From the IMG/VR virus record IMGVR_UViG_3300032893_000170, positions 1 through 37,742 of that record: 37,742 bases of DNA; one strand, 5' to 3'. A program made the translations under genes and the position numbers. Below, piece after piece: positions 760 through 36,116 of the stretch. Source of the DNA: a virus. Under the pieces are notes generated by a model. The model searched no databases. It worked only from the letters and a program-made list of their open reading frames with translations, and was not told where the DNA came from. Each line of letters begins with the position of its first letter. Within the stretch, counting starts at the first letter, position 1.

Positions 760-1032
760 ATGACCAAAATCGAACGTGATGAAATCAAGAGGCTTGCGGA
801 AAAGGCGATGTCTCGACCGTCGGCTTTTTCTAATAAAAAGTGTGATAATGGATACTCAAATAAAGCGCTATTTCACGCAGCATGCAGCCCAGAAAAAATA
901 ATCGCGCTGATCGAGCAGATAGAAAAATATGAAGAAGCGTTGGAAAATATAAAAAATCGCAAGGGTGATTTTCCATACGCAAAATATATTAGATCGATTT
1001 GCAAAGAAGCACTGAAAGAGTTTGGGGAATGA
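760..1032 (+). CDS. Hypothetical protein (90 aa, helical/charged)
   Basis: ATG is preceded by ggaaggag. The ORF is tightly packed with its neighbours. Confidence 0.6.
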   Translation: MTKIERDEIKRLAEKAMSRPSAFSNKKCDNGYSNKALFHAACSPEKIIALIEQIEKYEEALENIKNRKGDFPYAKYIRSICKEALKEFGE

Positions 1033-1253
1033 AAGTAATATTTAAAATTATAATAGGATTCATAGCAAGCTGTGCTTTTTTGGGCATGCTATTGCCGGTG
1101 TGGTATGTAATAGGGTCTCTTTCTACTCAAGTAGAAGGTGACAAGATGTCGGTGGGCGCTGCGGCTTTTAGTATTTTTTTGTTCCTTGTTTTGCCGCTTT
1201 TAGTATTTTTTATTTATGCTCTCTATTCTCTTGGAGATTCTATTTTTAAATAA
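1029..1253 (+). CDS. Small membrane protein (74 aa, two hydrophobic helices)
   Basis: ATG 1029 overlaps the upstream stop (ATGA). Hydrophobic segments IIIGFIASCAFLGMLLPVWYVIG and AAAFSIFLFLVLPLLVFFIYALY. Confidence 0.6.
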   Translation: MKVIFKIIIGFIASCAFLGMLLPVWYVIGSLSTQVEGDKMSVGAAAFSIFLFLVLPLLVFFIYALYSLGDSIFK

Positions 1254-2214
1254 GATTTGCACAAAACGAGAGTCAAAACTCATCGGGCAAGATGAAGGTG
1301 GAATTGATGTTTATGGTGAATGGGTGTTAAATGGCTTGGATTTATTTAGCGGAATTGGAGGACTCACCATCGTTCTACACAATTGGGTCCGGCCAATCGC
1401 CTATTGTGAAAGTGATCGATACGCCCAGTCAGTTCTTCTGTCACGTATGTCAGAAAGAAGATTGCCCATCGCACCCATTTGGGACGACGTATGCACTATT
1501 CGCCGAGCGCATCTTCCCATGGGATTGGACATCATCTACGGCGGATTCCCGTGCCAGGACATCAGTATTGCAGGACATGGAAAAGGCTTGGAAGGAAAGC
1601 GGAGTGGATTATTTTTCGAAATCATACGACTATGTCGCGAGCTTCGACCAAGATTCGTTTTCCTGGAAAATGTCCCAGCTATCACTGTTCGAGGGCTTGA
1701 TCGAATTCTCTTGGAGTTCACTGCGCTGGGGTACGATTGTAGATGGACGATTGTATCAGCCGCAGAGGTTGGAGCCCCACACTTACGCGAACGCTGGTTC
1801 TTACTTGCCCACGCCAATGGCGACAGACTACGGAACAAGGAACAAAAATGGGATATCCAAACCATCGTTGAATACAATGGCAAGAAAAAATCTTTGGCCG
1901 ACACCAAAAGCAAACGATGCGGAGAAGGGCGGAAATTTCGATATCAACAACTCGAGGAATGGATTACCGGCAGCAGTAAAGAGATGGTCAACCCCTTGCG
2001 CGCGGGACTGGAAGGACAACGGGAAAAGCCAATCGAGTTTTACAAGAAACTCTCAAACACTTCTGACTCAAGCTGGTGGGAAGCTGAACCCGCAGTGGGT
2101 CGAGTGGCTGATGGGGTACACAATAGATCACACCGCCTTAAAGGATTGGGCAATGCTGTTGTTCCGCTCCAAGCGAAAAAGGCGTTCGAAAGATTGATGG
2201 GTATTAATTTATAA
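1216..2214 (+). CDS. DNA (cytosine-5)-methyltransferase, large-domain motifs only in this frame
   Basis: Motif I LDLFSGIGG (1336-1362), motif IV GGFPCQDIS (FPCQ 1546-1557), motif VI FLENVPAI and motif VIII GAPHLRERWFLLA. Motif X is RLKGLGNAVVP (GNAVVP 2149-2166), preceded by WWEAEPAVGRVADGV. Start uncertain: ATG 1216 overlaps the upstream gene, and GTG 1324 is an alternative. Confidence 0.85.
   Translation: MLSILLEILFLNKICTKRESKLIGQDEGGIDVYGEWVLNGLDLFSGIGGLTIVLHNWVRPIAYCESDRYAQSVLLSRMSERRLPIAPIWDDVCTIRRAHLPMGLDIIYGGFPCQDISIAGHGKGLEGKRSGLFFEIIRLCRELRPRFVFLENVPAITVRGLDRILLEFTALGYDCRWTIVSAAEVGAPHLRERWFLLAHANGDRLRNKEQKWDIQTIVEYNGKKKSLADTKSKRCGEGRKFRYQQLEEWITGSSKEMVNPLRAGLEGQREKPIEFYKKLSNTSDSSWWEAEPAVGRVADGVHNRSHRLKGLGNAVVPLQAKKAFERLMGINL
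1331..2197 (+). CDS. Nested +2-frame ORF (288 codons) carrying TRD-like xTPxAxD repeats and a motif-IX-like LNPQWVEWLMGY element; possible small-domain subunit or recoded segment of the methyltransferase
   Basis: Stop-free from ATG 1331 to TGA 2197 and wholly inside the MTase ORF. Contains LPTPMATD (1805-1828), WPTPKAND (1895-1918), WSTPCARDWKD (1985-2017) and LNPQWVEWLMGYTIDHT (2084-2134). The ATG abuts the stop of a 12-codon uORF. Confidence 0.4.
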   Translation: MAWIYLAELEDSPSFYTIGSGQSPIVKVIDTPSQFFCHVCQKEDCPSHPFGTTYALFAERIFPWDWTSSTADSRARTSVLQDMEKAWKESGVDYFSKSYDYVASFDQDSFSWKMSQLSLFEGLIEFSWSSLRWGTIVDGRLYQPQRLEPHTYANAGSYLPTPMATDYGTRNKNGISKPSLNTMARKNLWPTPKANDAEKGGNFDINNSRNGLPAAVKRWSTPCARDWKDNGKSQSSFTRNSQTLLTQAGGKLNPQWVEWLMGYTIDHTALKDWAMLLFRSKRKRRSKD

Positions 2215-3249: not shown

Positions 3250-3278
3250 TTGCATTAATGCGGTGAGGTCTTTATATG
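3250..3278 (+). promoter_or_regulatory. Candidate sigma70-like promoter (TTGCAT-17 nt-TATATG)
   Basis: Hexamers at 3250-3255 and 3273-3278 with a 17-nt spacer. It sits downstream of the terminator and upstream of a long GC-richer leader. By-eye match only. Confidence 0.25.
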
Positions 3279-3559
3279 CACACGTTGGAAACAGGGTCTT
3301 GAAAAAGATCTTTTGAGCGGGCGTGATCGGTGGGGCAATGCGAAGGCCCTATAAACAGTCGCTCTAGTGGGATTAGGTTCGTCATCCGAAATCCTGTGTC
3401 AAAGCTTGGGAACTCGTCTCAAAAGACAGGCAATGCTATGGCTCATGTTTCAGCCTGAGGATAGGATTTAATCATCTTATTTTCTTGGTTGGAAACGTGT
3501 GCCTTGCAAGGGAATCTGAACTCAAAGACAATCAATGCATTAAGGGGTTGAATATCCAC

Positions 3560-3745
3560 ATGACAGACCAAAACAGATGGAGAACAAAAAGAGAAAACAA
3601 GTGTGTGCCTCTTGGTGAAGTAGTTCATGGAATGGTCAAAGAAAAAAAAGATCAAGAACTCAAAGAATTGATGGAAGTCTGGGGAGTATTGTACATAGAA
3701 AAAGTTTACAAAGATTGGTTAGATAAAAATACTGTGAGGATTTAA
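3560..3745 (+). CDS. Hypothetical protein (61 aa; a longer TTG 3485 start is possible)
   Basis: ATG 3560 with aagggg about 13 nt upstream. The stop abuts the RBS of the next gene. Confidence 0.45.
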   Translation: MTDQNRWRTKRENKCVPLGEVVHGMVKEKKDQELKELMEVWGVLYIEKVYKDWLDKNTVRI

Positions 3746-9016: not shown

Positions 9017-9964
9017 CTATTTACTGACCATAGTAATTGTAAATCTAGCAAGCCCAGATGTGTCGTTAGCATTTGAATCAGTATGTGCCCTAATCACATC
9101 ATTGACCGCCAATATTTTGCAATTTGACATAACGTTTGGACCATCAAAGCTAGAATTTCCCGTTAGGGCAACAGCCACCATGTCTGCTGCGTTAATGCTT
9201 TGAATGGATGTAGTCAGCTGCGAAGAATTTAAAGAAATACCAACATAAGCAAGACCACCTGTATTTGCATCGCCATAGCTCATGCAATAAACTCCAGCTG
9301 TATTTATTGTAAAACTAGCACCATCCGTCGCACTATCGGCATATGTGATATCCGATCCAGTATTGATAAGAGTGGTTGTGAATCGACGAATTTTTGTGTT
9401 TGTAGATCCATATCCATTTCCGGCATAAAGAGTTACCTCTGATCGAGGGCCTGCTGCACCAGAACCATTTGATGCAGCGGTAATCCGACCCTTGGCGTCT
9501 ACAGTTAAATTGGTATTTGTGTATGATCCGGCTGTTACTGCTGTATTTGCAAGAGTTAAAGCACCAGTGTTTGCTAGCGTAGCATCTCCGGACATTGCAA
9601 CATCGGCTGGTTGATTTGATCCATTGCCAACATAAAAATGAGCGCTTGTTAGGCCAAGCATTTGAGATGCTGTTGCAGAACCGGTTAAGTCCGAAAACGA
9701 TGGCTGTGCATATGTAAATGTATTTGGAGATGTAAAACCAGTGCAGTATTGATGAGACGGTGCGCTTGAAGTACTTAGCGTTGATTGGTATGAAAGGGCG
9801 GGAATATCTGCAGCAACCAATGATCTAAATGTTACCGGAGCAGATCCACCAGATGTTGGACCGGCCATAACTTTATTTGCTGGCTGACTAAGCTCTCCAA
9901 AATACCCAGCTTGGGCAGGCGCTATTAAAAAGCTTAAAAGGATTACCAAAAGTTTATTTAACAT
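9017..9964 (-). CDS. Receptor-binding/fibre-like protein 3 with signal-peptide-like N-terminus
   Basis: Begins MLNKLLVILLSFLIAPAQA. It shares the AGPTSGG..P.FR.L.AADIPALSYQ..LSTSSAP.HQ..TGFT.PNTFTYAQPSFSD module with the two upstream proteins. An alternative start is at 9979. Confidence 0.6.
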   Translation of the reverse strand: MLNKLLVILLSFLIAPAQAGYFGELSQPANKVMAGPTSGGSAPVTFRSLVAADIPALSYQSTLSTSSAPSHQYCTGFTSPNTFTYAQPSFSDLTGSATASQMLGLTSAHFYVGNGSNQPADVAMSGDATLANTGALTLANTAVTAGSYTNTNLTVDAKGRITAASNGSGAAGPRSEVTLYAGNGYGSTNTKIRRFTTTLINTGSDITYADSATDGASFTINTAGVYCMSYGDANTGGLAYVGISLNSSQLTTSIQSINAADMVAVALTGNSSFDGPNVMSNCKILAVNDVIRAHTDSNANDTSGLARFTITMVSK

Positions 9965-12506
9965 AATATGTGCTCCCATCTGAAATTACTGTAATGCTGT
10001 TATATTGAGTCGACAACACTTGAGTTGCCAAGCCATCTATTAAGTCGGACGAAGAAATACTAACCGTGTTTGCAGAAGAATCAATTTTCTTAAAATAAAA
10101 AACGTAGCTTTTGCCACCAGAATTTGCTGATGCCGCAGATGGAAGGGTAAATGTAAATGATCCTCCTGATGCGTCTCCTAGCATGTTTCGGTCAGTAAGT
10201 AATACCGTGTAGTTTGACGATTTTGAACTAACCGACTCAGCAAGTTGCAATGTACTCGGAGATCCAGAAATATTTGTAAAAGATGGTTGGGCATACGTGA
10301 ATGTATTTGGTGCCGTAAATCCAGTACAAAATTGATTTGCTGGTGCGCTAGAAGTGCTAATTGGAGCCTGATAATCGGTTCCAGAAGATGCCGCACCTAT
10401 TGCTGTTCCATTTCCCTTAAGAAGACCCGTTACTGATGTTGAAATGGTTAAAGTTGGAGTGGTTCCGCCGGAAGATGATCCAGCAAATCCGTTTGCGTTT
10501 GCAATTGAAATACTAGATACAAATCCAGAGGGAGGAGTTCTTGCCGCTAGTTGATCCAATGCAGCCGATACTGTTGTTGGCGACGGAGACCAGTTACCAG
10601 GAGTTGTTGGCGAATAAGAAACATATGGAGATAAAGAAGTAAGGCTTAAAGAATAGGCTCCAGTAATGCTACCAATCGCAGGAAGACTTCCAGAATCACT
10701 TAAAATAGTTGGAGTTCCGCTACCTGTTGTATGCCCAACAATAGAATATCCAATGTCAGAAATATTTCCAGAAAGCTCTAAGAAAAAACCACCAGAAACA
10801 TCAATGGCAGTAGTATATAAATCAGCCCCAGTTATTGTGGCAAAGGCACTGTTTCCAGAATCTTTAAATGTCAATGTTCCGTAAATTGCGCGCGCTAAAA
10901 TAGTGGACTGCTCAGCCTGAACTGTTGCTCCACCACTTAATCCGCCACCATTTATAAAAAGAGACGAGTTAGAAGAACCCACCCCCTGTTGTTCGAAGTC
11001 GATTAATCCAGAAGAAGCACAGTTGTTTAATGTTAATTGTATTTGTGTAGCATCATTTCTGATCCAAGTTAAGGTTTGAAAAAGAATGTTAGTTGCAGAA
11101 ACAGTGTCATTTGTAACCCCACCAGAAATGGTAAGGCTCTGATTTAACTGAATCGAATAATCTGAAACTATATTGATATTAGCCGGACAAGTAATAGGAC
11201 CGGCATCACTGTCGTTATTACCGCCAGAAATCTCAATGGTATATGGTTGATTAATTGTAGGAGAGATAGTGCTACACGCATGTTGAAGTGTTTTCCACGG
11301 GCTCTGAGATGATCCGGTTCCAGAATCACTCCCACTTATAAAGTCTACATAAACCTTATTTACAGAAAGAGGAATATCAGCAGCAGCGATTGCAGATGAA
11401 CTTAAATTTCCAGAGGCATCACTTTTTACGTAACCTGCTCCAAGGCTTTTAACTTGAGCTGTTCCACCAATTACGGTGTTGCCATTTGTGCGCTGGACAC
11501 TGAAGGTAGTGTTTCCAGAATTATCCTTATAATACATTTGTGTTGGGTCTGTTCTAAACCAATAAGCCCCACCAGCATAATACGGCAAAGTGCTTTCAAC
11601 TGAAAATAAACCGAAGCGACCTCCTTTAATTCTGGCATAAGACCCATGCGACGCAGAAATGGGAGTTGATGTCAATTGTTCATCGGCATAAACAATAATA
11701 CCTTCCGAATTTATATTGAATGGCATTCCATCCGATTGCCACGATCCCAATTCTATGGTTTGATCTGTTTGATAAGCCCAAATAGCGTTTCTAGCAAATG
11801 GATCGACATAATCAGTTTGAACCTGACCATTATTAATTTTTAAATTTTTATTTGTAGAATCATAAAAAAAGTTTGTGTTATCTTCCGTCAGGGTTGTTCC
11901 GCCGGCTCCGGCAAAGGGGACGCTTCCTGCAGTATAATCGCCGTGATTAGTTCCACCTTGGGCCGTGGTCGCAGTACCAGAAATGTCTGAAAATGCTGGT
12001 TGAGCGTAAGTAAATGTGTTTGGTGCGGTAAACCCTGTTCCAAATTGATGCGCAGGAGCAGACGACGTAGATAACACAGGTTGATATGAAAGCGCAGGAA
12101 TGTCTGCTGCAGTAAGAAGTCTAAATGTCGGTGCAAGTGGGCCACCAGATGTTGGGCCAGCAAATACTGTATTATTGGCTTGAGTATTTATTGTGCCTGT
12201 CAGAGTTCCGGCTCCTGTTACCGGAGATCCGGACACTGTAAAAAGAGGACCAGTTAGAGAAAGCCCAACGCTTGTTACTACACCACCAGCAGCTGTTGCC
12301 TCAAGAAGCCACGATGTCCCATTCCACACATAAAGACCGAACCCGGTTGTTTCTAATCTCAGATCACCAACAACATTCCCAGAAGATGGGAGCGTTCCAA
12401 CGCTTAGAGTGGGTGCCTTATAGTTTGGTGATGCAGTGTTTGGATAGTACTGACCAAATGCCATAGATCCGATTAATAAAAAAATCAAAGCAAATATTTT
12501 ATTCAT
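9954..12506 (-). CDS. Tailspike-like protein with central parallel beta-helix region and signal-peptide-like N-terminus
   Basis: ATG 12506 after gaggtg. N-terminus MNKIFALIFLLIGSMAFGQ. The shared fibre module occurs twice. The central SGSDSGTGSSQSPWKTLQHAC... stretch with Gly/Asn/Ser-rich repetitive strands suggests a pectate-lyase-like fold. Confidence 0.65.
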   Translation of the reverse strand: MNKIFALIFLLIGSMAFGQYYPNTASPNYKAPTLSVGTLPSSGNVVGDLRLETTGFGLYVWNGTSWLLEATAAGGVVTSVGLSLTGPLFTVSGSPVTGAGTLTGTINTQANNTVFAGPTSGGPLAPTFRLLTAADIPALSYQPVLSTSSAPAHQFGTGFTAPNTFTYAQPAFSDISGTATTAQGGTNHGDYTAGSVPFAGAGGTTLTEDNTNFFYDSTNKNLKINNGQVQTDYVDPFARNAIWAYQTDQTIELGSWQSDGMPFNINSEGIIVYADEQLTSTPISASHGSYARIKGGRFGLFSVESTLPYYAGGAYWFRTDPTQMYYKDNSGNTTFSVQRTNGNTVIGGTAQVKSLGAGYVKSDASGNLSSSAIAAADIPLSVNKVYVDFISGSDSGTGSSQSPWKTLQHACSTISPTINQPYTIEISGGNNDSDAGPITCPANINIVSDYSIQLNQSLTISGGVTNDTVSATNILFQTLTWIRNDATQIQLTLNNCASSGLIDFEQQGVGSSNSSLFINGGGLSGGATVQAEQSTILARAIYGTLTFKDSGNSAFATITGADLYTTAIDVSGGFFLELSGNISDIGYSIVGHTTGSGTPTILSDSGSLPAIGSITGAYSLSLTSLSPYVSYSPTTPGNWSPSPTTVSAALDQLAARTPPSGFVSSISIANANGFAGSSSGGTTPTLTISTSVTGLLKGNGTAIGAASSGTDYQAPISTSSAPANQFCTGFTAPNTFTYAQPSFTNISGSPSTLQLAESVSSKSSNYTVLLTDRNMLGDASGGSFTFTLPSAASANSGGKSYVFYFKKIDSSANTVSISSSDLIDGLATQVLSTQYNSITVISDGSTYYVK

Positions 12507-12519
12507 TGAGCACCTCATA

Positions 12520-13539
12520 TTAGTTTGCATCCCACTGTCCACTTACGCCAACAGTAAATTGAACCGAATTCCCAGGATTCAGTGTAACGCTTGCAGCAGT
12601 TTCTACTGTATCGACACCATTTCCAAAAACAACAATATTGAATGTCTGTGACTTCAGATTTTTAATAGTTATGGATTGTCCAACCACAACCGCCGGAGGA
12701 AGAGTGTACGCTCTGTTTGCAGTAAGAACAGTGCCGCTTCGTACATATCCTGCGTCCGCTGGTATCGCATAGTTGGCATCACCACCGTTATAAACAACCA
12801 CCGGAGATCCGGCAGGAAGATCAGCCGCAACAAGAGGTCTGAATGTTGGCGCACCAGCCGGACCAGACGTTGGCCCAGCAAAAACAAGATTTGCTGTTTG
12901 CGTTGTAAGCGATCCAGTTAGTGTTCCGGCTCCTGTTACCGGAGATCCAGAAACAGAAAACAAACTGACAGGAAGCGAAAGGGCAACGCTAGTTACGGTT
13001 CCACCACCACCAATCCCAGCACTGTCTGATAAAATCCAACCGTTTCCGGCAGGATTTATAATTGGAAAATATCCAGGAAATAAAGACAGATTACCAGGCA
13101 ATTGCATTGAAAAAGATGCGCCATCACCATCTGCAAGTTGGACACACCGAGAAACCTCATCCTGCAATCTTTGAATCAAGAGAGTGACGTAATCAAATTG
13201 TTCTACAAGTGCAGACGATGAAATTGTTCCACCCTGCAACAATGCAAAATTTTGTTGCTGAATTGGCGATCTAATTACAATAATTATATCTGTAATCAGC
13301 GGAACATAAGATGAAAAAACAACAGTTCCGCCGCTCGCATAAAGACCCTGGTAATTTGGTGTTCCAGAGATGGTGTAGTCAGTATTTAAAACATATGGGC
13401 CGGTTATTCCACCGGCAATAGTGTCATATTTGTAAACGATTAAATCAGCCTGTCTGAAAAAATAATATGGGAATGAGAAAGAAGTTGACACTCCGTCCCC
13501 GGCAACAACTACTCTATTTGTTACTGATGAAACACCCAT
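12520..13539 (-). CDS. Tail fibre with T7 gp17-like N-terminal tail-attachment domain
   Basis: VVVAGDGVSTSFSFPYYFFRQADLIVYKYD...IIIVIRSPIQQQNFALLQGG...LVEQFDYVTLLIQRLQDEVSR matches the podovirus fibre N-terminal pattern. The C-terminus carries the shared module. Confidence 0.7.
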   Translation of the reverse strand: MGVSSVTNRVVVAGDGVSTSFSFPYYFFRQADLIVYKYDTIAGGITGPYVLNTDYTISGTPNYQGLYASGGTVVFSSYVPLITDIIIVIRSPIQQQNFALLQGGTISSSALVEQFDYVTLLIQRLQDEVSRCVQLADGDGASFSMQLPGNLSLFPGYFPIINPAGNGWILSDSAGIGGGGTVTSVALSLPVSLFSVSGSPVTGAGTLTGSLTTQTANLVFAGPTSGPAGAPTFRPLVAADLPAGSPVVVYNGGDANYAIPADAGYVRSGTVLTANRAYTLPPAVVVGQSITIKNLKSQTFNIVVFGNGVDTVETAASVTLNPGNSVQFTVGVSGQWDAN

Positions 13540-16500
13540 TTATTCCCCCTGATTTAGTGTACCACTATTGCGCTTTTTAAAATCAGAAATCATTTGACTT
13601 CCTTGTTTTGCTATAGATCCATACTGAAAAAGTATGGTGTCCAATAGCTGCCTTTTTTCAATTGCAGGCATTTTCGGATCATCCTGTATAATTTGATAAG
13701 TCTTTCTTGCAGTTGCCATGCCTTTTGAAATTTCGTTCAGATTTAATTGAAAGTCAGGATGCTCGTTTGCTATTTTCTGAGCAGCCTCAATGTCACCATT
13801 CTTGGCAGCCATCTTATATGTTTCCATTGCTCTATCTGCTTCTTTTTTTGCATCATAAAAGTCTTGAGAATATTGCGTATTAAATGACGGATATCGAACC
13901 AAAAATGAATGAAGAACCGGAGAGTCCTGCCACGGCTCCGCTTTATCAGAATTAAGAGCCTCAAGCCGTTTGTTTTTTTCTTCTTGAGACGCCGAAGACT
14001 TGTCTATCTCATTTCTTTTTTCTTGGTTGATAAGAGCATCTGCTGTTTTAAGCGCCCATCCTCCGGCAGTTCCTCCCCATGCATGAATATAATTTTCTAT
14101 AACAATAGGCGATTGCAATGGAACATTTGATCCTTCTGGACCAATGTCTCTGACATATGGGACGTATCCGATAATTTTGGCTATCTGTTTTGCCGCATTG
14201 CTTGTGTATGGCTTATATTGCATTTCTGGAAGTTCTTTTTCCAGACCCTCATTTACAAGCGGCCTTCCGGTAAAGTTATTTTTGTTTCTCCATTGCTCTA
14301 GGACAGGCTGAATTATATTTGGAATTGGTTCTGGAATAATTGATTTTTGAAATGTATTTACAAAATCTTTAAATCTATTCGGATTTTCCTTGAAATAAGA
14401 ATCAAGAGCAACCTCTGCTCCAGATCCAAATAAAATTCCTGGAGCCCATGGTTTTGGTAACCTTAGAATTGTGGCTGGTTTTTCTGGACCAGATTCACCG
14501 CCAATTAATTTTGTTACATTGAAAAGCCAGTATTGATCCTTCATCCAGTTTGGCTGTGATTGAATCGCTTCATCGTCTTTGTTTGCCGCATATAACATTG
14601 CAGAAACAGCGGTTAATGCGCTTAACTTCGCGATAGTACTTTTTGGATCTTCTTGAAACGCCTGTGCCATTCTATCCAGTGAATTTATGTGGGCACCAAT
14701 AAATGCGACCCCAGTTCTAAGCGCAGACCTCTGAAGACCAACCTTTTGATAATCAGGAACAACTTCTCTAGATCTAAACGCAGCTTCCTCCGGTGAAGTT
14801 CCTTGCGCTATAGATTTCTTATATTCAGCAAATCTAGATGCATTGTCAGTGAGTCGAATAAATCCTTCTGTGGCTTCCATGGCAGTATGGACTGCATTCC
14901 ATGCTAGACCATGTATTGGTGCCTCTTTTTCAGAACTCTCTATTACGTTGTCTTTCATATAAGAATCGTCTAGTCGCATAAACGATGAAGATGCGCCGCC
15001 ATGATAAACCCAGTCTTGATAATCCTTGCTTTCCTTTCCAATCAATTCTTTTAAAACCATGGCCGAATCAAAAAATGGTATCATTCCAGTTTTTGAATAA
15101 ACACCAGCCATTATTTGAGATCTAAAAAAGTGAGACAAAGCAAAGCCTGGATTTACAACTACACCAACCCTGGTCATGTTTGCGAATGTTCGCATTACCT
15201 TGCTCCAGGCATCAATTGATGTGAAGTCCCCGTCCATTCTCTTTAATGAATCGATAACTCCTGGTGCTCCTTCGTAAATCTTTGGTTTTCCATCAACCAT
15301 TATTTGAATTTGATTATCTTTTAAATATGTGGACTCAGGTCTAAAAATATTAAATGCATCCGGATCAATTCCTTCAATTCCTTGTTTTTTTAACGCGGAA
15401 ACAATTTCTTCAGAAGAGACCTCCCTTGGTAGCATGGTTTTTTTTACTTCTGTAAGATATGCATCGGGATTTTCTTCTCCGCCTTCTTCTAAAAGTTTTC
15501 CATCACGCATAGAATCAACAAACGAGTTTCTGATGTCATTTATCATTGCTTTTTTGATAATAGACTCAGTGTTTTTGTAGGTCTGTAGTATTGGGTCTAG
15601 AATATTTAAATCAGACCCATAAATTTTTTTAATAGCCGATCCACCGCGAACTTTTCCTGTATAAAAGTCAGGATCTTGAACTCTATTTAGTGGTATGTGA
15701 TTTTGATTTGCCTCTTTTATGGCAGACAACGAATCATCGCTAATAAGTCCTTTAGCATTTGCAAAATCAAGAACTCTATTTTCAAAATCGACTCTTCTCT
15801 GATTTATTTCTTCAAACTTATCCTGTCCTTCATCAACAACTTTTTGCGCTTTTTCTCTATCAAAATCAGAGTATGGTGTTATCTTTCGGTCGTCTAGTTC
15901 TAGCGCTCGTTTAGCGATACCATAAGCTCGATATCCATTTATGTCACCATCTGGAATGTCTTTAAATATGGCATTTAGTCCCTCGCCATTTATTTCATTT
16001 GTAATTCCATCTCTGGTTCCAAATTCAGCAAATGATCTGACTGTGTCTGTGTGTGCGGCAAATCTTCTTCCCTTTTGATAAGCATCATCTTTCGCACTTA
16101 TTTCAGCACCGTTTGCCTTTGCTTCTTTTAGCGCTGAATATAGTGGGTCTAAGTAGTCCTGATTTCTGGCATACCAATCATCAAATTTTTGGCCAAATTC
16201 TTTATTTTTGGGCTCTTCACTGATTCCAATTTTATCTAGAATCTCTTTTGCCTCCGGAGATCTTTCGGCAGAATCAATGGGAGGTATTTTACCAACATCT
16301 TCCTTTGGAACTAGTTCAACTTTTGGAGGCTCACCAGTTAACTCCTTTGTTGGAGTCTCACCTTCTTTTGTTGGTGCCACATCTTTTTCAGACGGCGTAA
16401 TCCTCAAGTCTGTTGGTTGTGCTTCTTTTGGTGTTGAGTTATCGCCAGCCAAAATGTCTTGTTTAAGCTGAACGTCTTGTGATGCCGCAGTAACAACATC

Positions 16501-17337
16501 TGCAGGTGTTTGTCCTGTCTCTGAATGAATGTTACGAAGTTTTGGTACAACATGAACAATTCCATGTATACCGCCAAGAACAAGTGCTCCATCTAAAAAA
16601 TCATCAAAATGCGGCAAATGTCCTTCTAGTGCAGATCCAATGGTTGTCATTGATCCAAGCTCTGCTGCGGTTTTTGCAGCAGTAGTTAGTGCCGGACCAG
16701 CAAAACCCTCTGTAATAGTTTCTGCGGCGCCACCAGTTGCTGCGGTTGCAACTCCTGTTATCATTCCTTTTGTATATTCCCATCCCGAACCCACAAGCCT
16801 ATCAACAAAATCTGATGCATTTTTTATGTCACCTTTTTCATAGTGATCCATTAAAAACTTTCTGATAGCTTGAACGGCACCAAATCCTGCCCCCATCCCT
16901 ATTGGTGTTTCTGGACCACCGGCAGCAACGCTTGCTGCCAAAAATTGAGGAGCATCACCAATCATTTGTCCTGTCTGGCTCATTACGCGCATGGCGCGTG
17001 ATGCATTCTCAGGAAGAATTGTTGTTGGTGCTCCATGAATAATTAGTCCAGAAGTAGAACCTTGAATTCCAGCAATAAACGCTGACATAAAATTATCTGC
17101 ATAAGATTTGTTTTGTGTTGCTCCAGACTTTTCTTGTGACGAAGAATAAACTTTGTGCGCGTCTAAATTTTTTTGTATATAATTCTTGGTTGCAGACATG
17201 TCTGGTTCTGGAGATGCCGAAGGAACTATTCCCATTTGCTCATCCGTCATTGCATCCGGCTTTGGCGATTCCATCTGTGCATCAGTAAGTGCTTCACCAG
17301 AAGAACCCATCTGCTGGTCTGTTAGGACATCTGCCAT
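13540..17337 (-). CDS. Large internal virion/ejection protein (T7 gp16 position and size class, 1265 aa)
   Basis: Assignment rests on synteny and size only. No lysozyme or transglycosylase motif recognised. Confidence 0.55.
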   Translation of the reverse strand: MADVLTDQQMGSSGEALTDAQMESPKPDAMTDEQMGIVPSASPEPDMSATKNYIQKNLDAHKVYSSSQEKSGATQNKSYADNFMSAFIAGIQGSTSGLIIHGAPTTILPENASRAMRVMSQTGQMIGDAPQFLAASVAAGGPETPIGMGAGFGAVQAIRKFLMDHYEKGDIKNASDFVDRLVGSGWEYTKGMITGVATAATGGAAETITEGFAGPALTTAAKTAAELGSMTTIGSALEGHLPHFDDFLDGALVLGGIHGIVHVVPKLRNIHSETGQTPADVVTAASQDVQLKQDILAGDNSTPKEAQPTDLRITPSEKDVAPTKEGETPTKELTGEPPKVELVPKEDVGKIPPIDSAERSPEAKEILDKIGISEEPKNKEFGQKFDDWYARNQDYLDPLYSALKEAKANGAEISAKDDAYQKGRRFAAHTDTVRSFAEFGTRDGITNEINGEGLNAIFKDIPDGDINGYRAYGIAKRALELDDRKITPYSDFDREKAQKVVDEGQDKFEEINQRRVDFENRVLDFANAKGLISDDSLSAIKEANQNHIPLNRVQDPDFYTGKVRGGSAIKKIYGSDLNILDPILQTYKNTESIIKKAMINDIRNSFVDSMRDGKLLEEGGEENPDAYLTEVKKTMLPREVSSEEIVSALKKQGIEGIDPDAFNIFRPESTYLKDNQIQIMVDGKPKIYEGAPGVIDSLKRMDGDFTSIDAWSKVMRTFANMTRVGVVVNPGFALSHFFRSQIMAGVYSKTGMIPFFDSAMVLKELIGKESKDYQDWVYHGGASSSFMRLDDSYMKDNVIESSEKEAPIHGLAWNAVHTAMEATEGFIRLTDNASRFAEYKKSIAQGTSPEEAAFRSREVVPDYQKVGLQRSALRTGVAFIGAHINSLDRMAQAFQEDPKSTIAKLSALTAVSAMLYAANKDDEAIQSQPNWMKDQYWLFNVTKLIGGESGPEKPATILRLPKPWAPGILFGSGAEVALDSYFKENPNRFKDFVNTFQKSIIPEPIPNIIQPVLEQWRNKNNFTGRPLVNEGLEKELPEMQYKPYTSNAAKQIAKIIGYVPYVRDIGPEGSNVPLQSPIVIENYIHAWGGTAGGWALKTADALINQEKRNEIDKSSASQEEKNKRLEALNSDKAEPWQDSPVLHSFLVRYPSFNTQYSQDFYDAKKEADRAMETYKMAAKNGDIEAAQKIANEHPDFQLNLNEISKGMATARKTYQIIQDDPKMPAIEKRQLLDTILFQYGSIAKQGSQMISDFKKRNSGTLNQGE

Positions 17338-18968
17338 TATTTATTTTCCTTTACCGGATACCATTTTCCATCAGAATCATTCCTCTGCCTCATAATCCCG
17401 TCTGGACCTTTCATAATTCTTGGCCGATTAACTGTCTTTTCAGTTGTACCCTGTTGTTTGGTTTCCTGAGAACCTTGTATGTTGTATTGTCCTCTTATTT
17501 CGTCTGCTTTTTGCTTTATAATATCAGCAGGTGTTTGCATATATTGTTGAATGTTTTTTCCAAAAAAGTCAGGCGAACTAGGATTCAAAACAGAATCAAC
17601 AGACTTTCCATTGTTAACCGCACTTTGTTTTGCTTGCTGCAATGCATTTGTAAACTGCATTAATTGAAGCTCACCACCAGCATATTTTTGTCCGCCATTG
17701 GCAGAGTTTATTTTTTCTTTTGCAAATTCTATTAATGATTTTTCGTTTGAAAGATTTGCTCTTCCTTGTGGTGTTTTATCAAGCATTGTAAGCATTGTCT
17801 TATAATCATCGCCAGTCAAACCACGAGATGTCTGTTTCATGAGTTCTTCCGGTGAAGATATCTGACCATTTAAAATTCTTGAATTTATATCGTTATAAAC
17901 AGTTGGTGGTGTCGAAGTTTGTCCTTTTGCAGCAAGCCTTGCTATTTCAGCATTTGATTTAAGCATTGCTTGAGTTGCTTCCATTGTCATACCAAGCTTT
18001 TGAGCACCAGAAATAATTTCTTTTGTAGAAAGAGTTCCAGCAGCCATTTTTGGAACAATACTTGTTTGCCAATTCTGTATCGCAGCTTCGTTCTGAATTT
18101 TTTGAACATCTAAAACACGATTACCTTCGGTTTGTGCAGCATTAAAGTTTGCCCTAGATTGCTTTATTAGGGCCGCCTTTTGATCAGCATTAAGATAATC
18201 ATCAAGAAAGTTTTTACCTGTATCTGGGTCGACATGATTTAAAAGACCTTCGACAGCATTATACCTAGGATCTCTTGGATCTAATTTACCACCGCTTGAA
18301 ACCATATCACTTACCACGGCATCAAAGCTTTTTTGCATCACACCTTTTACCATGGAATCAGCTAATAGAGTCTGGTCCTGCTTTTTCATTGCCTGAAGTT
18401 GAGCAGGATTTTTATTCATGTTTGGGTCATTTTCGTATCCATTGTATTTTTCATCAAGGGCACCCATCTCGTTTGCAAAAGTTCCTGGAGATGGATCTTG
18501 CATTACAATATTTGATGAAATATTCATTGCATTGGTATGGGACGCTACTTCGTTTGCTCCAGCAATTTGCGCACTACCTTGTGCTGCCCAACGGATTAAA
18601 GAACCTCTGGTTCTGCCCGATGCGCGTTCAAATTCAGCTCTGCCGCGAGGTGTGCTAAACTTAGATCCAGCATCACTTGCCCAGTTGTCATAATCATCTA
18701 AGAGCGTATTTTGATCCAAAATTCCGCGCTTTGTTTCGTCCTGAACTCTATTAAAAAAATCTGCCTTTGTTCCAGCAACCTGCTCTTGTGCGTCAGCGGC
18801 CTCCATCATGGAAGCCCTATTTTCTAAAACATTGGCGGTTTCAGTAATTCCCCTACCTAGCTGTTCAACGCCTTCTCCAAAACGATCAACAACATTTAGA
18901 TTTGCGCTGGCGCCGCCTTGTGGTTCAGCAGCGGATTGTTCTGGTAAATATTCTTGTATTCTAGCCAT
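17337..18968 (-). CDS. Internal virion protein (gp15 position, 543 aa)
   Basis: Synteny only. The start overlaps the upstream stop. Confidence 0.45.
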   Translation of the reverse strand: MARIQEYLPEQSAAEPQGGASANLNVVDRFGEGVEQLGRGITETANVLENRASMMEAADAQEQVAGTKADFFNRVQDETKRGILDQNTLLDDYDNWASDAGSKFSTPRGRAEFERASGRTRGSLIRWAAQGSAQIAGANEVASHTNAMNISSNIVMQDPSPGTFANEMGALDEKYNGYENDPNMNKNPAQLQAMKKQDQTLLADSMVKGVMQKSFDAVVSDMVSSGGKLDPRDPRYNAVEGLLNHVDPDTGKNFLDDYLNADQKAALIKQSRANFNAAQTEGNRVLDVQKIQNEAAIQNWQTSIVPKMAAGTLSTKEIISGAQKLGMTMEATQAMLKSNAEIARLAAKGQTSTPPTVYNDINSRILNGQISSPEELMKQTSRGLTGDDYKTMLTMLDKTPQGRANLSNEKSLIEFAKEKINSANGGQKYAGGELQLMQFTNALQQAKQSAVNNGKSVDSVLNPSSPDFFGKNIQQYMQTPADIIKQKADEIRGQYNIQGSQETKQQGTTEKTVNRPRIMKGPDGIMRQRNDSDGKWYPVKENK

Positions 18969-19555: not shown

Positions 19556-19992
19556 TATCTGCCCCCCAGATAAACCATAAGACTACAATCTTCGCCATTT
19601 GGTAAAAATTTTATAGCGCGTTCACATTCGGTTATAAATCCAAGCATTTTTGCTCTACGTATTCCGATTTCGAAATTACATGGAACCGCAATTTCAAGCC
19701 TATTATAAAATGGCGCAACATCATTTAAAAATGACTTAATTCCTCTAAAAATAGGAACAAAGTACTCTTTTGAGTTTTCATCAAAAACAGTCCAAAGATA
19801 TCCTCTTCCATTCCAATATGGCACTATTCCACCACACACAACTGGTTTTCCATTTATCATACCAGTAATTGATGAAAGTTTTTCAAGAACATCGAAGTCA
19901 ACTGTTTTAAAAAATTCAACATTATCAGAGTTTGATTTTTGATTAAGCATCTCACTAAGATGTCCTCTTTTAAAGGCTACCTTCTCAAACAT
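19555..19992 (-). CDS. Small virion-module protein (gp13 position, 145 aa)
   Basis: Synteny and size only. Confidence 0.35.
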   Translation of the reverse strand: MFEKVAFKRGHLSEMLNQKSNSDNVEFFKTVDFDVLEKLSSITGMINGKPVVCGGIVPYWNGRGYLWTVFDENSKEYFVPIFRGIKSFLNDVAPFYNRLEIAVPCNFEIGIRRAKMLGFITECERAIKFLPNGEDCSLMVYLGGR

Positions 19993-22816
19993 CGAACTCC
20001 TCCATAAATGAAGTCAAAGATTGAATGCACCCAGGAAGGGCCGAGTTCATTTCAATGCATGGCTGACTATCGAAATCATAGGCACTTTCTAATCCTTCTC
20101 TTATCATTCCGGAAAATAGTGGCATTGCTTTGTCTGCCTGGTCAACATCTGCTTGTGAAAATTGAACAGGAATCAAATTATTAAAACTAGTGCCAAGAGA
20201 CAAATCGCCGGTTCTATATAGTTGCGCTGCAAGTCTTGTAGTTCTTCTTGTTTTTCCAATTGATGTGCCATCCGGAGATCCGGCATCCGGCCTTAGGAGT
20301 TGAATCTGAGATTTAAAACCGTATCCAAGTTGAACTTTTGCGGCAGGAAATGGAAGAGTTACCGAACCAGAATTACTTACAACAAGGTTTCCACAAATCC
20401 CACCATCTAAAAGAGCTGAAATAGTTTCATTTTCAAGCCAGGCAATACCAGAAATTGTTGTAACTAGTTTTGCTGCCTGTCCACCAGAAACATATGGGCT
20501 TACAATTCCACCATCACTAGGATCAACTGGAAGTGTTGAGATGGGATTTCCTTCAAAATCAAAAAGCTGAAACGTGTTACCAGAGATGCCCTGAATTATA
20601 AATTGATTCCCATTTACTACACTTGTGGTTGTTTGGTTTCCATTAGAATCGGTTAGCGTTTTTGAAACACCAACAACATCATTTATGGTAATATGATCAC
20701 CATTACTAAATGGCACCGGAACACTTATGTTTACAACAGCAGGAACTGCTGCAGTTATATTTGTGATCGTGTATGGACTATAAAATGTTCCACCGCAGTC
20801 CAATTGGAAGGCATCGTCCTGTGACACAGAGTCATCAAAAATCTTTGTCATGTATTCGATGCAATTTACGGTAGATCCATTGATGTATCTTTTTACAACA
20901 ATCCAAAGTTGATCAAATGTAAGGTCCGGAGCGGGGATAGATGCAATTGAAAGTGCGGCCGGGATTGTTCCAGATGCATCAGATCTACCGCCAAGATGAT
21001 GTGGCATCCATCCGGCGATAAGTGAAAGGTCATCTCTGTTGTAAATCATAGAAATCAATGCACCATCTGATCTTACGGCCCAAATTATTGGATGTGTTTC
21101 TTTTGTAACTGCCAAAACAGTAACTGATGGAATGGCTATTTGCTCTGAAAGTTCAGTCAAATCTATTGACCTAAATGTTCCTGCCGCAAAAAAGAAACTC
21201 ATTTCTCTTATTTTTCGTCCCGCCCTTTGAACATAAAGAGTTCCATTTCCAATCTTCACTGGATTGATGGAAGAACTTCCAAAAAACGATGTCTGCTGAG
21301 CATTGAAGTTTGTTGGAGTAAGCGCATCACTTGTAGAAGATGGTGTCATTACCCATTCAGAAACATAGGTAGCAGCCAGAAGTCCCTGAGCTGTAGAAGA
21401 CATCCACTGGATAGAATTTAGATCGGTTGAGTTTAGTTGAAATGAAAATGCATTTTTATCTGTTACATTCAGCGTTGCTGGATCAGATGGTGCAAAGTTT
21501 TCATAATTTCCAACTTCACTGCCGTCCACTTCTTGTGGGGCTCCGCCAGCACCACCCAAAACAAGTCTATCCTGATGAAATGTTCCACATCTTGGAAATC
21601 CAAATCCAGGAGAATATACACCAAGTTGCCAAGTTGTTGCGACTGTATTTAATACGACACCATTAAGACCACCAAGAGGAAAGTTTATTAATGCCTTTGC
21701 TGCATTTTCAAAGCTTGCGAGATATCCATAGAATCTAACAGTTCCAACAACAAATCCCATTATTCTGCCAGCATCTGGTATCAATACTCCGGTTAACTTT
21801 TGTGCCAATGCTGACGTCGCAAATAAGGCTATTCTAGAGTTTCCACCAGAAACATATGCATTAGTAAAAGTAGATGCCACTAACAAAAATGTTGTTGTAG
21901 AGGTAACTATGATTTGCCAAGAAACAACTGGCGCCGCAGGAAGTGTCACCGAGTCCCAATTGTTTGCCTCTGTAGTACCAACTATTCCGCTGATAAAAAT
22001 ACTCTGTCCCGTTTGATATCCATGTGCAGCACTAGTGGTTATCTGAATTTGACCAGAACCACCGGGGTCCGTTACTGCCCCACTTATTGTTGCTGGTACA
22101 ATATTTACGTAGTTACCGCCAGCAAGCGTAAACTGATCCACCACTACGTTAGTGCTGTCGCCTATATTCTGATAAGTTTGTAAAGGAAAATATGGTCCAT
22201 CCTGAAATGTGCATTCGGAAAGTTTCCAAGCTGTTTGTGTTTGCCTTTGAAGTTTATATGGTACGTACTTTGGGTGAAATAAATAAAGAGTATCTGCATT
22301 TTGAGCGTACCGAATATCTGCAAGATCTGCCTGAAGATATGGTGTTTGAATTTCTAAAATTGTTCCATTTGCTATAGATGCTGTGGTGATAAAATTGAAC
22401 TCACCTTGCTGCAAAGAAAGCGTTGCTCTAGAGGCATAAAAAAGACCAATTGGTCTTGCAAATTGATCCAAATATTGTGGCCCATACGTTGGGTTACCAA
22501 CCACTTTATAAGAAGAGCCAACGGTCACTAGCTGCCCATTATTTGCATAAAATCTGACATACTGATTTCCAAATTCCAGCATATATGCTTGGGTTTCGGA
22601 AAATTGAAACGGGATTAAAATAGGAGGTGTTGAAAGCTTTGACTGCGCACAAAATTTTGTTCCAGGTCTTCGAACAATTGGACCCTGCAAAAGTGGAAGC
22701 GCGTTTAGACCACTTTGAAGACCTTTTTTGTATCTTGGATTATCTGCCTGACCAAAATAAAGCGGGCTTACCACACCAGAGGAAAAGCTAGACTGAAGTA
22801 CCGCAGCCTTTGGCAT
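19985..22816 (-). CDS. Tail tubular protein B / nozzle-like protein (943 aa)
   Basis: The N-terminal pattern SSFSSGVVSPLYFGQADNPRYKKGL...IVRRPGTKF...FQFSETQAYMLEFGNQYVRFY is typical of podovirus gp12-like proteins. It follows the gp11-like gene. Confidence 0.6.
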   Translation of the reverse strand: MPKAAVLQSSFSSGVVSPLYFGQADNPRYKKGLQSGLNALPLLQGPIVRRPGTKFCAQSKLSTPPILIPFQFSETQAYMLEFGNQYVRFYANNGQLVTVGSSYKVVGNPTYGPQYLDQFARPIGLFYASRATLSLQQGEFNFITTASIANGTILEIQTPYLQADLADIRYAQNADTLYLFHPKYVPYKLQRQTQTAWKLSECTFQDGPYFPLQTYQNIGDSTNVVVDQFTLAGGNYVNIVPATISGAVTDPGGSGQIQITTSAAHGYQTGQSIFISGIVGTTEANNWDSVTLPAAPVVSWQIIVTSTTTFLLVASTFTNAYVSGGNSRIALFATSALAQKLTGVLIPDAGRIMGFVVGTVRFYGYLASFENAAKALINFPLGGLNGVVLNTVATTWQLGVYSPGFGFPRCGTFHQDRLVLGGAGGAPQEVDGSEVGNYENFAPSDPATLNVTDKNAFSFQLNSTDLNSIQWMSSTAQGLLAATYVSEWVMTPSSTSDALTPTNFNAQQTSFFGSSSINPVKIGNGTLYVQRAGRKIREMSFFFAAGTFRSIDLTELSEQIAIPSVTVLAVTKETHPIIWAVRSDGALISMIYNRDDLSLIAGWMPHHLGGRSDASGTIPAALSIASIPAPDLTFDQLWIVVKRYINGSTVNCIEYMTKIFDDSVSQDDAFQLDCGGTFYSPYTITNITAAVPAVVNISVPVPFSNGDHITINDVVGVSKTLTDSNGNQTTTSVVNGNQFIIQGISGNTFQLFDFEGNPISTLPVDPSDGGIVSPYVSGGQAAKLVTTISGIAWLENETISALLDGGICGNLVVSNSGSVTLPFPAAKVQLGYGFKSQIQLLRPDAGSPDGTSIGKTRRTTRLAAQLYRTGDLSLGTSFNNLIPVQFSQADVDQADKAMPLFSGMIREGLESAYDFDSQPCIEMNSALPGCIQSLTSFMEEFDV

Positions 22817-26660: not shown

Positions 26661-26951
26661 TTATTTTTTATGTTTTTTTTCTTCACTTGCTCTAAAAATA
26701 ATTCTTTGTTTAAGTTCATCATAACTGCATCTAGCATATTCATTTATTCGAAGATAAACTTCGCGTCTTCCCTCTAATACTGCATGAACTCTTGCATCTG
26801 GATGAAAGGTTGTTTGATCGGCGCGACAAAATCTTTTTAAGTCTTCTACTACCATATTAACAAACTGAGAGTTTGTCTCAAAAACCCTGGCATATGCTTG
26901 TTGAAGTTTTTTAATATCGTCCTCAATCTTTGACTGTGGTGCCTCAATCAC
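26661..26951 (-). CDS. Hypothetical protein (96 aa) downstream of portal
   Basis: Overlaps the portal stop. VEDLKRFC...AVLEGRREVYLRI resembles a small protein commonly found next to podovirus portals. Confidence 0.5.
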   Translation of the reverse strand: MIEAPQSKIEDDIKKLQQAYARVFETNSQFVNMVVEDLKRFCRADQTTFHPDARVHAVLEGRREVYLRINEYARCSYDELKQRIIFRASEEKKHKK

Positions 26952-28700: not shown

Positions 28701-29048
28701 TCATGCTCCTGTCAAAAGACTTGAAGTAGTTGTGGGTTCATCAGTAAGTCCACTTGGTGTGGTCAGCACAGATGCCGTAGATCTTGCATTTTGTTCTCTA
28801 GCAAGTTCGGATTGAATTGCTGTTGTAGACGCTAATGCTGGGGTAGCGGGCTGTGTAATTGGTTTTTTTTGTTCAGGAGGCGCTGGATTTAAGAGTTTGG
28901 AAATATTACCACCTTCAAGTCCACCAACTGCGGCCCCAAGTCCAGCACCAATTGCGGTTCCAATTCCTGGAAATAAAAGAGTACCAACCAATGCGCCTTC
29001 TCCGGCACCAATACCTGCTCCAGTAATATTTGGCGAAACACCTGACAT
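28701..29048 (-). CDS. Glycine-zipper small protein (115 aa)
   Basis: GAGIGAGEGALVGTLLFPGIGTAIGAGLGAAVGGLEGG followed by a Pro/Thr/Ser-rich tail. Confidence 0.55.
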   Translation of the reverse strand: MSGVSPNITGAGIGAGEGALVGTLLFPGIGTAIGAGLGAAVGGLEGGNISKLLNPAPPEQKKPITQPATPALASTTAIQSELAREQNARSTASVLTTPSGLTDEPTTTSSLLTGA

Positions 29049-34083: not shown

Positions 34084-34287
34084 ATGGCGCAAAACAAACC
34101 TGAAATAATAGACTATTTCGACGCACATCAGTTAGCTGGTTCCGATCCATATGATCCAGACAAAGACATTGGATCTATCGATGGCGAACTTCTTAAAAAA
34201 CTTGTTACTAGCGACCTCGCTAAATCGCTTGAAAATTCCCTCAAAGATCAAAAAAAATGGAAACACGATCGAAAGGAACAAAAATGA
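34084..34287 (+). CDS. Hypothetical acidic protein (67 aa)
   Basis: ATG 34084. The stop overlaps the next start (ATGA). Confidence 0.45.
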   Translation: MAQNKPEIIDYFDAHQLAGSDPYDPDKDIGSIDGELLKKLVTSDLAKSLENSLKDQKKWKHDRKEQK

Positions 34288-36115: not shown

Positions 36116-36116
36116 A

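Follow-up and report, generated by a model that had tools for sequence, protein, structure and literature searches.

Two fully overlapping frames of a phage gene probably encode the two chains of one C5-methyltransferase

Can one stretch of phage DNA encode both chains of a single enzyme on the same nucleotides? The question is raised by a locus in IMG/VR virus record IMGVR_UViG_3300032893_000170 (hereafter the window, meaning the whole stretch analysed, 37,742 nucleotides [nt] long), where an open reading frame (ORF) for a DNA cytosine-C5 methyltransferase, termed F1, wholly contains a second ORF on the same strand, termed F2, whose register lies 1 nt downstream and which overlaps it over about 867 nt. 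The original prediction, made from the letters alone, had noticed methyltransferase motifs I, IV, VI, VIII and X in F1, and repeats followed by a motif-IX-like element in F2, and it offered three explanations: (a) a two-chain enzyme made from nested genes, (b) recoding from one frame into the other and back, or (c) two compensating indel errors. On re-reading, all its motif and ORF coordinates agree with the sequence, and among the three options the first fits best: in our view the locus probably specifies an alpha/beta C5-methyltransferase, both chains of which would be read from a single cistron in frames that overlap completely. The features discussed below are collected in Table 1.

The identity of the outer product is given by homology. 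It matches PF00145 (E = 6.6e-39; 134.7 bits against a cut-off of 22; amino acids 39-250, profile positions 2-216 of 324), TIGR00675 (E = 9e-32; 111 bits against a threshold of 100.65) and phrog_363 (E = 3e-66), and its best solved relative is M.HhaI (E = 2.5e-19), with which the N-terminal 190 residues, spanning motifs I-VIII, align. All five motifs lie where they had been reported and are conserved in homologues, and by these matches F1 is the catalytic large domain of a C5-methyltransferase. Monomeric M.HhaI has the same catalytic motifs, but there the interval from motif VIII to motif X holds the recognition domain and motif IX, on the same chain and in the same frame, whereas at this place F1 has an unconserved shadow of the F2 repeats. 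Neither motif IX nor a target-recognition domain was found between motifs VIII and X of the F1 chain, as had been predicted: the segment is hydrophilic and unconserved, tblastn recovered it in few loci, the Pfam alignment ends at profile position 216 of 324, and a profile of the F1-only C-terminus matched nothing among the PDB sequences. It is probably a linker between motifs VIII and X. Some homologous F1 products are as short as about 230-245 amino acids with an unconserved middle of 40-60 residues, which leaves no room for a recognition domain in F1. From RVDRLRGLGNAVVP onward F1 is the dominant frame in conservation.

F2 could nevertheless be an artefact or a product of chance, that is, the result of two compensating indel errors or an open but untranslated alternative frame. 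In DNA rich in guanine and cytosine (GC) alternative frames can be open by chance, and gene callers report one ORF per contig: only F1 in the window (JGI call P0121, 1216-2214) and only F2 in the near-identical ENA contig k141_6285748 (37,434 nt; L165 1501-2367; P0001). Under a model of independent and identically distributed bases at the region's composition, 288 open codons have a probability of 1.5e-7, in keeping with the earlier crude estimate of the order of 1e-6 or less. As a fairer null we shuffled the synonymous codons of one frame, preserving its protein and codon usage, and counted stops in the other. Shuffles of F1 codons in the window gave a mean of 7.9 F2 stops, with 0 of 300 stop-free, and the F1 middle (114 codons) is open against 5.1 stops expected from shuffled F2 codons (P = 0.003); the third frame holds 12 stops in 1324-2197.

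The same tests were extended to two sets of homologous loci, one of 80 viral loci gathered with an F2 alignment (stop test on 72) and one of 80 loci from bacterial and archaeal assemblies picked with the F1 N-terminal domain alone as query, and hence blind to F2 (stop test on 62); the latter came from Acinetobacter, Pseudomonas, Myxococcus, Bradyrhizobium, Halomonas, Ralstonia, Akkermansia and many metagenome-assembled genomes. A control based on the synonymous divergence (dS) of flanking genes was impossible, the flanks of 80 loci having no conserved gene families, and shuffles and third-position identity were used instead. In the viral set, where F1 motifs I-VIII share 51-79% identity with the window at every locus but one (44%), nearly all of the 80 loci are open in both frames from motif I to just past motif X. 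Zero F2 stops were counted in 62 of the 72 loci against 7.2 expected (P(0) about 1e-4), while the control frame showed no depletion (16.0 stops observed, 15.0 shuffled). The F1-picked loci behave alike, with zero F2 stops in 57 of 62 against 4.3 expected and 13.5 observed versus 11.8 shuffled in the control frame. Reciprocally, no stop interrupts the F1 middle in any of 67 loci, where F2 codon shuffles predict 3.6, in a test that took in only loci whose F1 reaches motif X (about 74 of 80). Across more than 140 diverged loci, then, about 90% are open end to end in both frames, and the F2 stop falls about 15 codons past the GN of motif X in nearly all loci, which rules out assembly error and chance. 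The arrangement recurs in hundreds of independent assemblies of varied origin as well as in the genomes of cultured phages, the shuffles and the third-frame control exclude a compositional cause, and F2 has a conserved ATG and conserved residues of its own. To judge from these comparisons the artefact reading is effectively refuted, and we give it a negligible probability; the nested frame described in the original prediction is real and under selection.

Where the two products begin bears on how they could be made. The original prediction had let F1 start at 1216, as in the version with ATG 1216 that frame +1, open across 1216..2214, allows. We place the start almost certainly at GTG 1324 (M-L-N-G-LDLFSGIGG), because F1 ORFs of homologues open just 2-3 codons before G-LDLF, with ATG, GTG or TTG as the start codon (M(L)NGLDLF...). 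An 84-codon ORF at 999-1253 (+), for a hydrophobic, membrane-like small protein (MKVIFKIIIGFIASCAFLG...), overlaps the long JGI version of F1 and further favours 1324. With F1 so placed, the two ORF starts lie 7 nt apart and the two stops 17 nt apart. Upstream, the strong Shine-Dalgarno-like GAAGGTGG lies 6 nt 5' of ATG 1307, which opens a mini-ORF of 7 codons in the F2 frame (ATG 1307 to TAA 1328-1330; MFMVNGC, then stop); the F1 GTG sits inside the mini-ORF and the mini-ORF TAA adjoins the F2 ATG, an arrangement that suggests termination and re-initiation feeding both frames. In homologues the Shine-Dalgarno sequence ends 0-4 nt 5' of the F1 start and 7-9 nt 5' of the F2 ATG, a good spacing for the latter, so that one ribosome-binding region can serve both starts.

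The F2 ATG itself, 4-7 nt past the F1 start in homologues, is made of the last two bases of one F1 codon and the G of the next, and it is retained while that F1 codon switches among AAT, TAT and CAT (N, Y or H). Among the F1-picked loci the position holds ATG in 46 of 62 and GTG in 4 of 62, an F2-frame stop stands immediately 5' of it in 42 of 62, and the F2 N-terminus is usually MSWLFSQALVAE. By this pattern of conservation the F2 start is selected. In Acinetobacter phage vB_AbaM_ABMM1, which has the same layout with ORF starts 4 nt apart and stops 14 nt apart, the TGA of the upstream gene overlaps the F1 ATG (ATGA) and adjoins the F2 ATG (L081 1233-1239). The 5' extent of F2 differs by lineage, although it mostly starts together with F1: some loci (L026, L069, L092, L093) have stops within the first 25-40 F2 codons and must begin later, and the nested ORF of Paenibacillus phage Shelly (L082) begins about 60 codons in, that of Gordonia phage CheeseTouch (L083) about 85. 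The F2 part common to all lineages begins just 5' of the motif VI shadow, at an SWK/SWR element.

Beyond open frames and a conserved start, constraint on the F2 protein is concentrated in islands where F2 is conserved above what F1 allows. The N-terminal motif MAWIYLAE, laid over F1 motif I (NGLDLFSG), reaches z values up to 9.7. In the island VLQDMEKAWKESGV, the tryptophan at 1589 is conserved in 99% against 47% expected, and the island falls within a helix that AlphaFold predicts with low confidence for F2 residues 74-92. In LRWGTIVDGRLY, the F2 residues L and Y are conserved in 76% and 79% against 30% and 37% for the F1 residues, and similar WGM..NG..F/Y motifs occur in the F2 ORFs of Acinetobacter and Gordonia phages. 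The converse holds for WW..EP.V of F1 (2074-2097), whose W, W, E and V are conserved beyond the level imposed by F2 (z = 4-10). Shared ancestry inflates these z-scores, but it does not explain their patchy pattern, nor the sites at which conservation is higher in the subordinate frame. In a sub-family whose 5' end is duplicated, W[IT]YL of F2 is retained through synonymous codons, the F1 residues there being L, P, S or F; we considered this sub-family as a case of F2 coding over non-coding F1 and rejected the idea, since F1 may begin upstream there too. By the islands, both frames are under protein-level selection on the same nucleotides.

This double constraint separates two chains from one. 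In a recoded enzyme, ribosomes would begin in F1, pass into F2 by a +1 shift near 1800 and return by a -1 shift near 2135, giving a hybrid chain whose motif order is canonical, motif X following motif IX after about 9-13 residues. The rare database proteins P0128 and P0136 do join an F1 N-terminus to an F2 C-terminus, but both end in F2 and lack motif X; beyond these chimeras, the best 120 matches of a hybrid query (F1 + F2 + F1) held no complete single-frame relative. The same 120 matches included none of the single-chain phage and actinophage enzymes, with LLPTP repeats, EWLMG and GNxVxP in one frame, from which the original prediction had argued. Gordonia phage CheeseTouch does not bear out that premise either, with its LPTP repeats in the +1 frame relative to the annotated methyltransferase, in whose own frame the EWMMG motif and motif X lie. 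Having motif IX in the F1 frame and only the repeats in F2, this phage could be counted in favour of recoding; its layout implies that the motif-IX-like element can sit on either chain. A single recoded chain uses one frame per position and so cannot explain constraint in both, yet two stretches, FLLAHA/YLPTP and WW..EP.V/LNP.W, show constraint on F1 and F2 alike. The ATG of F2 and its N-terminal motif are conserved, and the segments that a hybrid would leave unused stay open in about 90% of loci, so the earlier argument from their openness against recoding and compensating indels holds and is now backed by more than 140 loci. Nor is there a conserved shift site: a canonical -1 slippery heptamer stands between motifs IX and X in only 7 of 50 loci, the first junction has neither a stop nor a known +1 signal, and the unused segments do not gain stops as a programmed frameshift would let them. 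We therefore hold recoding to be very unlikely.

What, then, might F2 contribute as a chain of its own? It belongs to a large family, with 568 homologous protein clusters that align over about 100% of its length at 40-57% identity; the named members are all 'hypothetical protein' and none has a Pfam domain. A profile built from 114 of the 568 clusters finds 43,237 cluster representatives at E <= 1e-3, of which 26,347 pass E <= 1e-10. PF00145, which recognises F1, finds no match in the F2 product, and neither Pfam nor NCBIfam has an F2 model; F2 does match phrog_1008 (E = 6.5e-30), and PHROG families 363 and 1008 thus hold both proteins, each labelled DNA methyltransferase. In the literature searched on overlapping or nested methyltransferase genes in phages, the F2-type family was not found described.

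Two elements of F2 point to the part that F1 lacks. Its repeat motif [LW]xTPxAxD is conserved in homologues, where the copy number is 0-5 and the region is 54-172 codons long even though F1 is very similar; such variability beside a near-constant partner fits a specificity module, and the repeat region is a candidate for target recognition. Downstream lies the motif-IX-like element, LNPQWVEWLMGYTIDHT. A profile joining it to F1 motif X had a single match among the PDB sequences, the motif IX region of the plant DRM C5-methyltransferase 4onj (PLEPDEVEMLLGFPKNHT; E = 0.33), and Pfam searches with 43-58-residue C-terminal fragments (hybrid, F1-only and F2-only) gave no match. The support for a motif IX on F2 is weak but specific, since the F1-only control profile matches nothing. 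Of the original proposal that the small domain is encoded in the overlapping frame, the motif-IX-like element and the repeats of F2 stand, while the small-domain identity is tentative and the recognition role of the repeats putative.

In some homologues an HNH-endonuclease-like ORF (C..C...HH...C..CH) lies in the F2 frame between the codons of the motif-IX-like element and those of motif X (L002 at about 3280-3590; L055 and L056 at about 3250-3680; proteins P0133 and P0037). PF01844 scores the L055 insert at E = 5.7e-4, just below the Pfam cut-off, and in P0037 the HNH-like part is fused to F2. F1 stays stop-free across the insert for about 140 extra codons and reaches RVDRLRGLGNAVVP, apparently a homing-type insertion accommodated in both frames.

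The direct precedent for a chain that supplies motif IX from inside the gene of its partner is M.EcoHK31I, a two-polypeptide C5-methyltransferase of E. coli HK31 (Lee, Kam and Shaw, 1995). According to two papers (PMC2836561, PMC3404938), its alpha chain carries motifs I-VIII along with X, its beta chain carries motif IX, the beta ORF lies entirely inside the alpha gene in an alternative frame, both chains are required, and the beta N-terminus contributes to association, which is weakened by its truncation. On the features that could be tested the window matches this architecture, a likeness drawn from published description: F1 holds motifs I, IV, VI, VIII and X like alpha, and F2, an ORF of the same strand but another frame, is wholly enclosed by the methyltransferase gene, an arrangement kept in more than 140 loci. 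The motif-IX-like element of F2 is a candidate counterpart of the beta motif IX. Protein searches returned no subunit named EcoHK31I among their matches. There are differences too. M.EcoHK31I is part of a restriction-modification system, whereas the gene of the window is a phage orphan. The M.EcoHK31I beta chain is reported to have 176 amino acids within an alpha of 309, so that the overlap is partial where F2 spans nearly all of F1. The original prediction had named M.AquI as precedent. This C5-methyltransferase is likewise of two chains, cut in the variable region with motifs IX and X on the smaller one (PMC3404938); in the window, by contrast, motif X is on the chain with I-VIII and the genes overlap fully. 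The M.EcoHK31I precedent makes the architecture less novel than the original prediction supposed. For their part, the M.AquI genes, by the original prediction's account, overlap only briefly.

Two other comparisons place the window further. Paenibacillus larvae phages such as Shelly (gp55/gp56, NC_041909) have a nested ORF in the +1 frame with WxTPxAxD repeats and LNPEWVECLMGFPIGWT; it opens about 60 codons inside the outer gene and closes about 50 codons short of the outer stop, and it is a distant relative of F2 (33% identity over 43% of the query), for which we came across no functional study. Nested genes on the same strand in another frame, both translated, are familiar from gene B inside gene A of phiX174. 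The nested genes of small phages, however, lie in tiny genomes under size pressure and have unrelated functions; here the phage is tailed with a genome of 37.7 kb, the overlap is of about 290 codons, and the two products are probably one enzyme.

The remaining alternative is that F2 is real and separately translated but not a methyltransferase subunit, having arisen by overprinting and serving some function of its own such as DNA binding or anti-defence. The selection evidence shows that F2 is a protein and not what it does, Pfam and NCBIfam have no model of it, its fold is not recognisable, and certain relatives carry the HNH-like module fused to it or after it. Several results also weigh against an alpha/beta enzyme of the kind we favour. 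Synonymous constraint on F1 is weak overall (third-position identity at identical four-fold codons of 0.36-0.44 against 0.33 expected), and much of the F2 N-terminal half may therefore be merely kept stop-free. The motif IX match is marginal. AlphaFold modelled F2 alone (114 sequences) with low confidence (mean predicted local distance difference test [pLDDT] score of 60.5, with residues 1-70 below 50 and apparently disordered), Foldseek with this model found no match in the PDB, and a hybrid chain from a mixed F1/F2 alignment was confident only in its N-terminal domain, the F2-derived part scoring 31-70; these models do not discriminate one chain from two. Finally, the M.EcoHK31I alpha chain is said to hold the target-recognition domain, where the F1 middle of the window is unconserved and the repeats are in F2. 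Against an unrelated function, F2 carries the motif that F1 lacks and that every C5-methyltransferase needs, in a form resembling motif IX of a solved enzyme; it was seen apart from F1 in none of the more than 140 loci; the short F1 products leave no room for a recognition domain; and the M.EcoHK31I precedent speaks the same way. We thus consider a separate function for F2 unlikely, and the alpha/beta enzyme the probable one.

In the alpha/beta enzyme as we picture it, the mRNA segment 1324-2214 would be read in two registers from starts 7 nt apart and one ribosome-binding region. F1 would yield an alpha-like chain consisting of the large domain (I, IV, VI, VIII), the poorly conserved hydrophilic linker and motif X, and F2 a beta-like chain with, in order, the MAWIYL motif, the helix, WGM..G..Y, the [LW]xTPxAxD modules, the motif-IX-like LNPxWVEWLMGYPxGWT and a basic tail. 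By analogy with M.EcoHK31I the two chains would assemble into the active enzyme, beta giving motif IX and probably target recognition, and the enzyme would most likely methylate the phage DNA to escape host restriction. Translation of F2, the heterodimer, the recognition role of the repeats and the anti-restriction role are what we infer; in the alignments both frames are open and selected, the F2 start is conserved and there is protein-level constraint in both.

Table 1. Coordinates of the two frames, their motifs and the phage genes of the window
Feature	Position	Strand	Remarks
F1 ORF, alpha-like	1324..2214	+	296 codons, GTG 1324 to TAA 2212-2214; start inferred from homologues
F2 ORF, beta-like	1331..2197	+	288 codons, ATG 1331 to TGA 2197
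Possible translation-start region	1293..1330	+	Shine-Dalgarno-like GAAGGTGG at 1293-1300, and mini-ORF
F1 motif I, FSGIGG (S-adenosylmethionine binding)	1345..1362	+	sequence read; invariant in alignment
F1 motif IV, FPCQ (catalytic cysteine)	1546..1557	+	sequence read; invariant
F1 motif VI, ENVP	1666..1677	+	sequence read; conserved
F1 motif VIII, APHLRERWF	1774..1800	+	sequence read; conserved
F1 middle segment, shadow of F2 repeats	1807..2070	+	hydrophilic, 37% charged, poorly conserved, stop-free
F1 segment WWEAEPAV	2074..2097	+	overlaps F2 motif IX region; W, W, E, V conserved
F1 motif X, GNAVVP	2149..2166	+	sequence read; conserved in homologues
F2 N-terminal motif MAWIYLAE	1331..1354	+	overlaps F1 motif I (NGLDLFSG); z up to 9.7
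F2 island VLQDMEKAWKESGV	1565..1606	+	consensus ALQExExAWKESEA; z = 5-11 beyond F1 constraint
F2 island LRWGTIVDGRLY	1721..1756	+	consensus PRWGMIVDGxLY; F2 conserved above F1
F2 repeat modules [LW]xTPxAxD	1805..2017	+	LPTPMATD 1805-1828, WPTPKAND 1895-1918, WSTPCARDWKD 1985-2017
F2 motif-IX-like element LNPQWVEWLMGYTIDHT	2084..2134	+	L, P, E, M, G nearly invariant
F2 basic tail KDWAMLLFRSKRKRRSKD	2141..2194	+	shadow of F1 motif X; sequence read
Tail protein	19985-22816	-	phage contig context
Head-tail adaptor	26948-28699	-	phage contig context
Terminase large subunit	29048-30625	-	phage contig context
Exonuclease	34257-35075	+	phage contig context
RecT-like annealing protein	35084-36115	+	phage contig context
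Second exonuclease-like ORF	36105-36974	+	phage contig context

The window is a whole tailed-phage contig of about 37.7 kb that looks complete. Its large ORFs at 9954-12542, 13540-17337 and 17337-18968 have no PHROG function or no PHROG match, and no tRNA genes or Rfam families were found in it. The methyltransferase gene (1324-2214) has 48.5% GC against 41.3% for the contig, and the genes flanking it are unrelated among 80 homologous loci; for both reasons it looks like a horizontally mobile cassette, although having to avoid stops in both frames may also add to its GC content. When E. coli genomes were searched at the DNA level with a Pseudomonas homologue, four prophage copies were all that came up. 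In the one examined (E. coli PCP07014; NZ_CM129871, L164 2504-3284), a proteobacterial variant whose record calls it a pseudogene with an 'internal stop', F1 and F2 are broken at the same place, F1 by a stop at 2869 and F2 by one at 2873.

The annotation of such loci is mostly one-sided. Pipelines that forbid long overlaps on the same strand choose one frame more or less arbitrarily, and an NCBI-named Bdellovibrio protein and the GenBank records of the Acinetobacter and Gordonia phages list only the F1-type product, ABMM1 among them; in Paenibacillus phage Shelly both ORFs are annotated, as gp55 and gp56 ('g55 internal gene'). The window is a real and ordinary example of a kind that is known but seldom recognised; its full-length overlap is what is unusual. 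The nested layout was demonstrated in 1995 for one E. coli enzyme, and it proves here to be very widespread and usually half-annotated. What deserves notice is how completely the frames overlap, the start region that they share, the family's size and the habit of annotating one protein only.

More tentatively, dual coding over the full length could be the way in which a very large clade of C5-methyltransferases from phages and prophages, spread over many bacterial phyla, is normally and ancestrally organised, a proposal that we lean slightly against. If true, the clade would comprise tens of thousands of protein clusters, with the recognition module and motif IX always on the overprinted beta chain and the N-terminal half of beta a functional element laid over catalytic-domain codons; no larger family of long (about 290-codon) overlapping genes on the same strand would be known from prokaryotic viruses, most of the clade's 'DNA cytosine methyltransferase' entries would describe half an enzyme, and the M.EcoHK31I alpha chain as holder of the recognition domain might need revisiting. 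In any case, database entries by the thousand, named 'DNA cytosine methyltransferase' or 'hypothetical protein', may be halves of one enzyme, and F1 expressed alone may yield an inactive protein. The more than 26,000 clusters form a large natural data set on two proteins evolving on shared nucleotides, and the family shows how starts 4-7 nt apart may share one ribosome-binding site. We may also speculate that variable repeats on a separate chain could allow these phages a quick change of methylation specificity.

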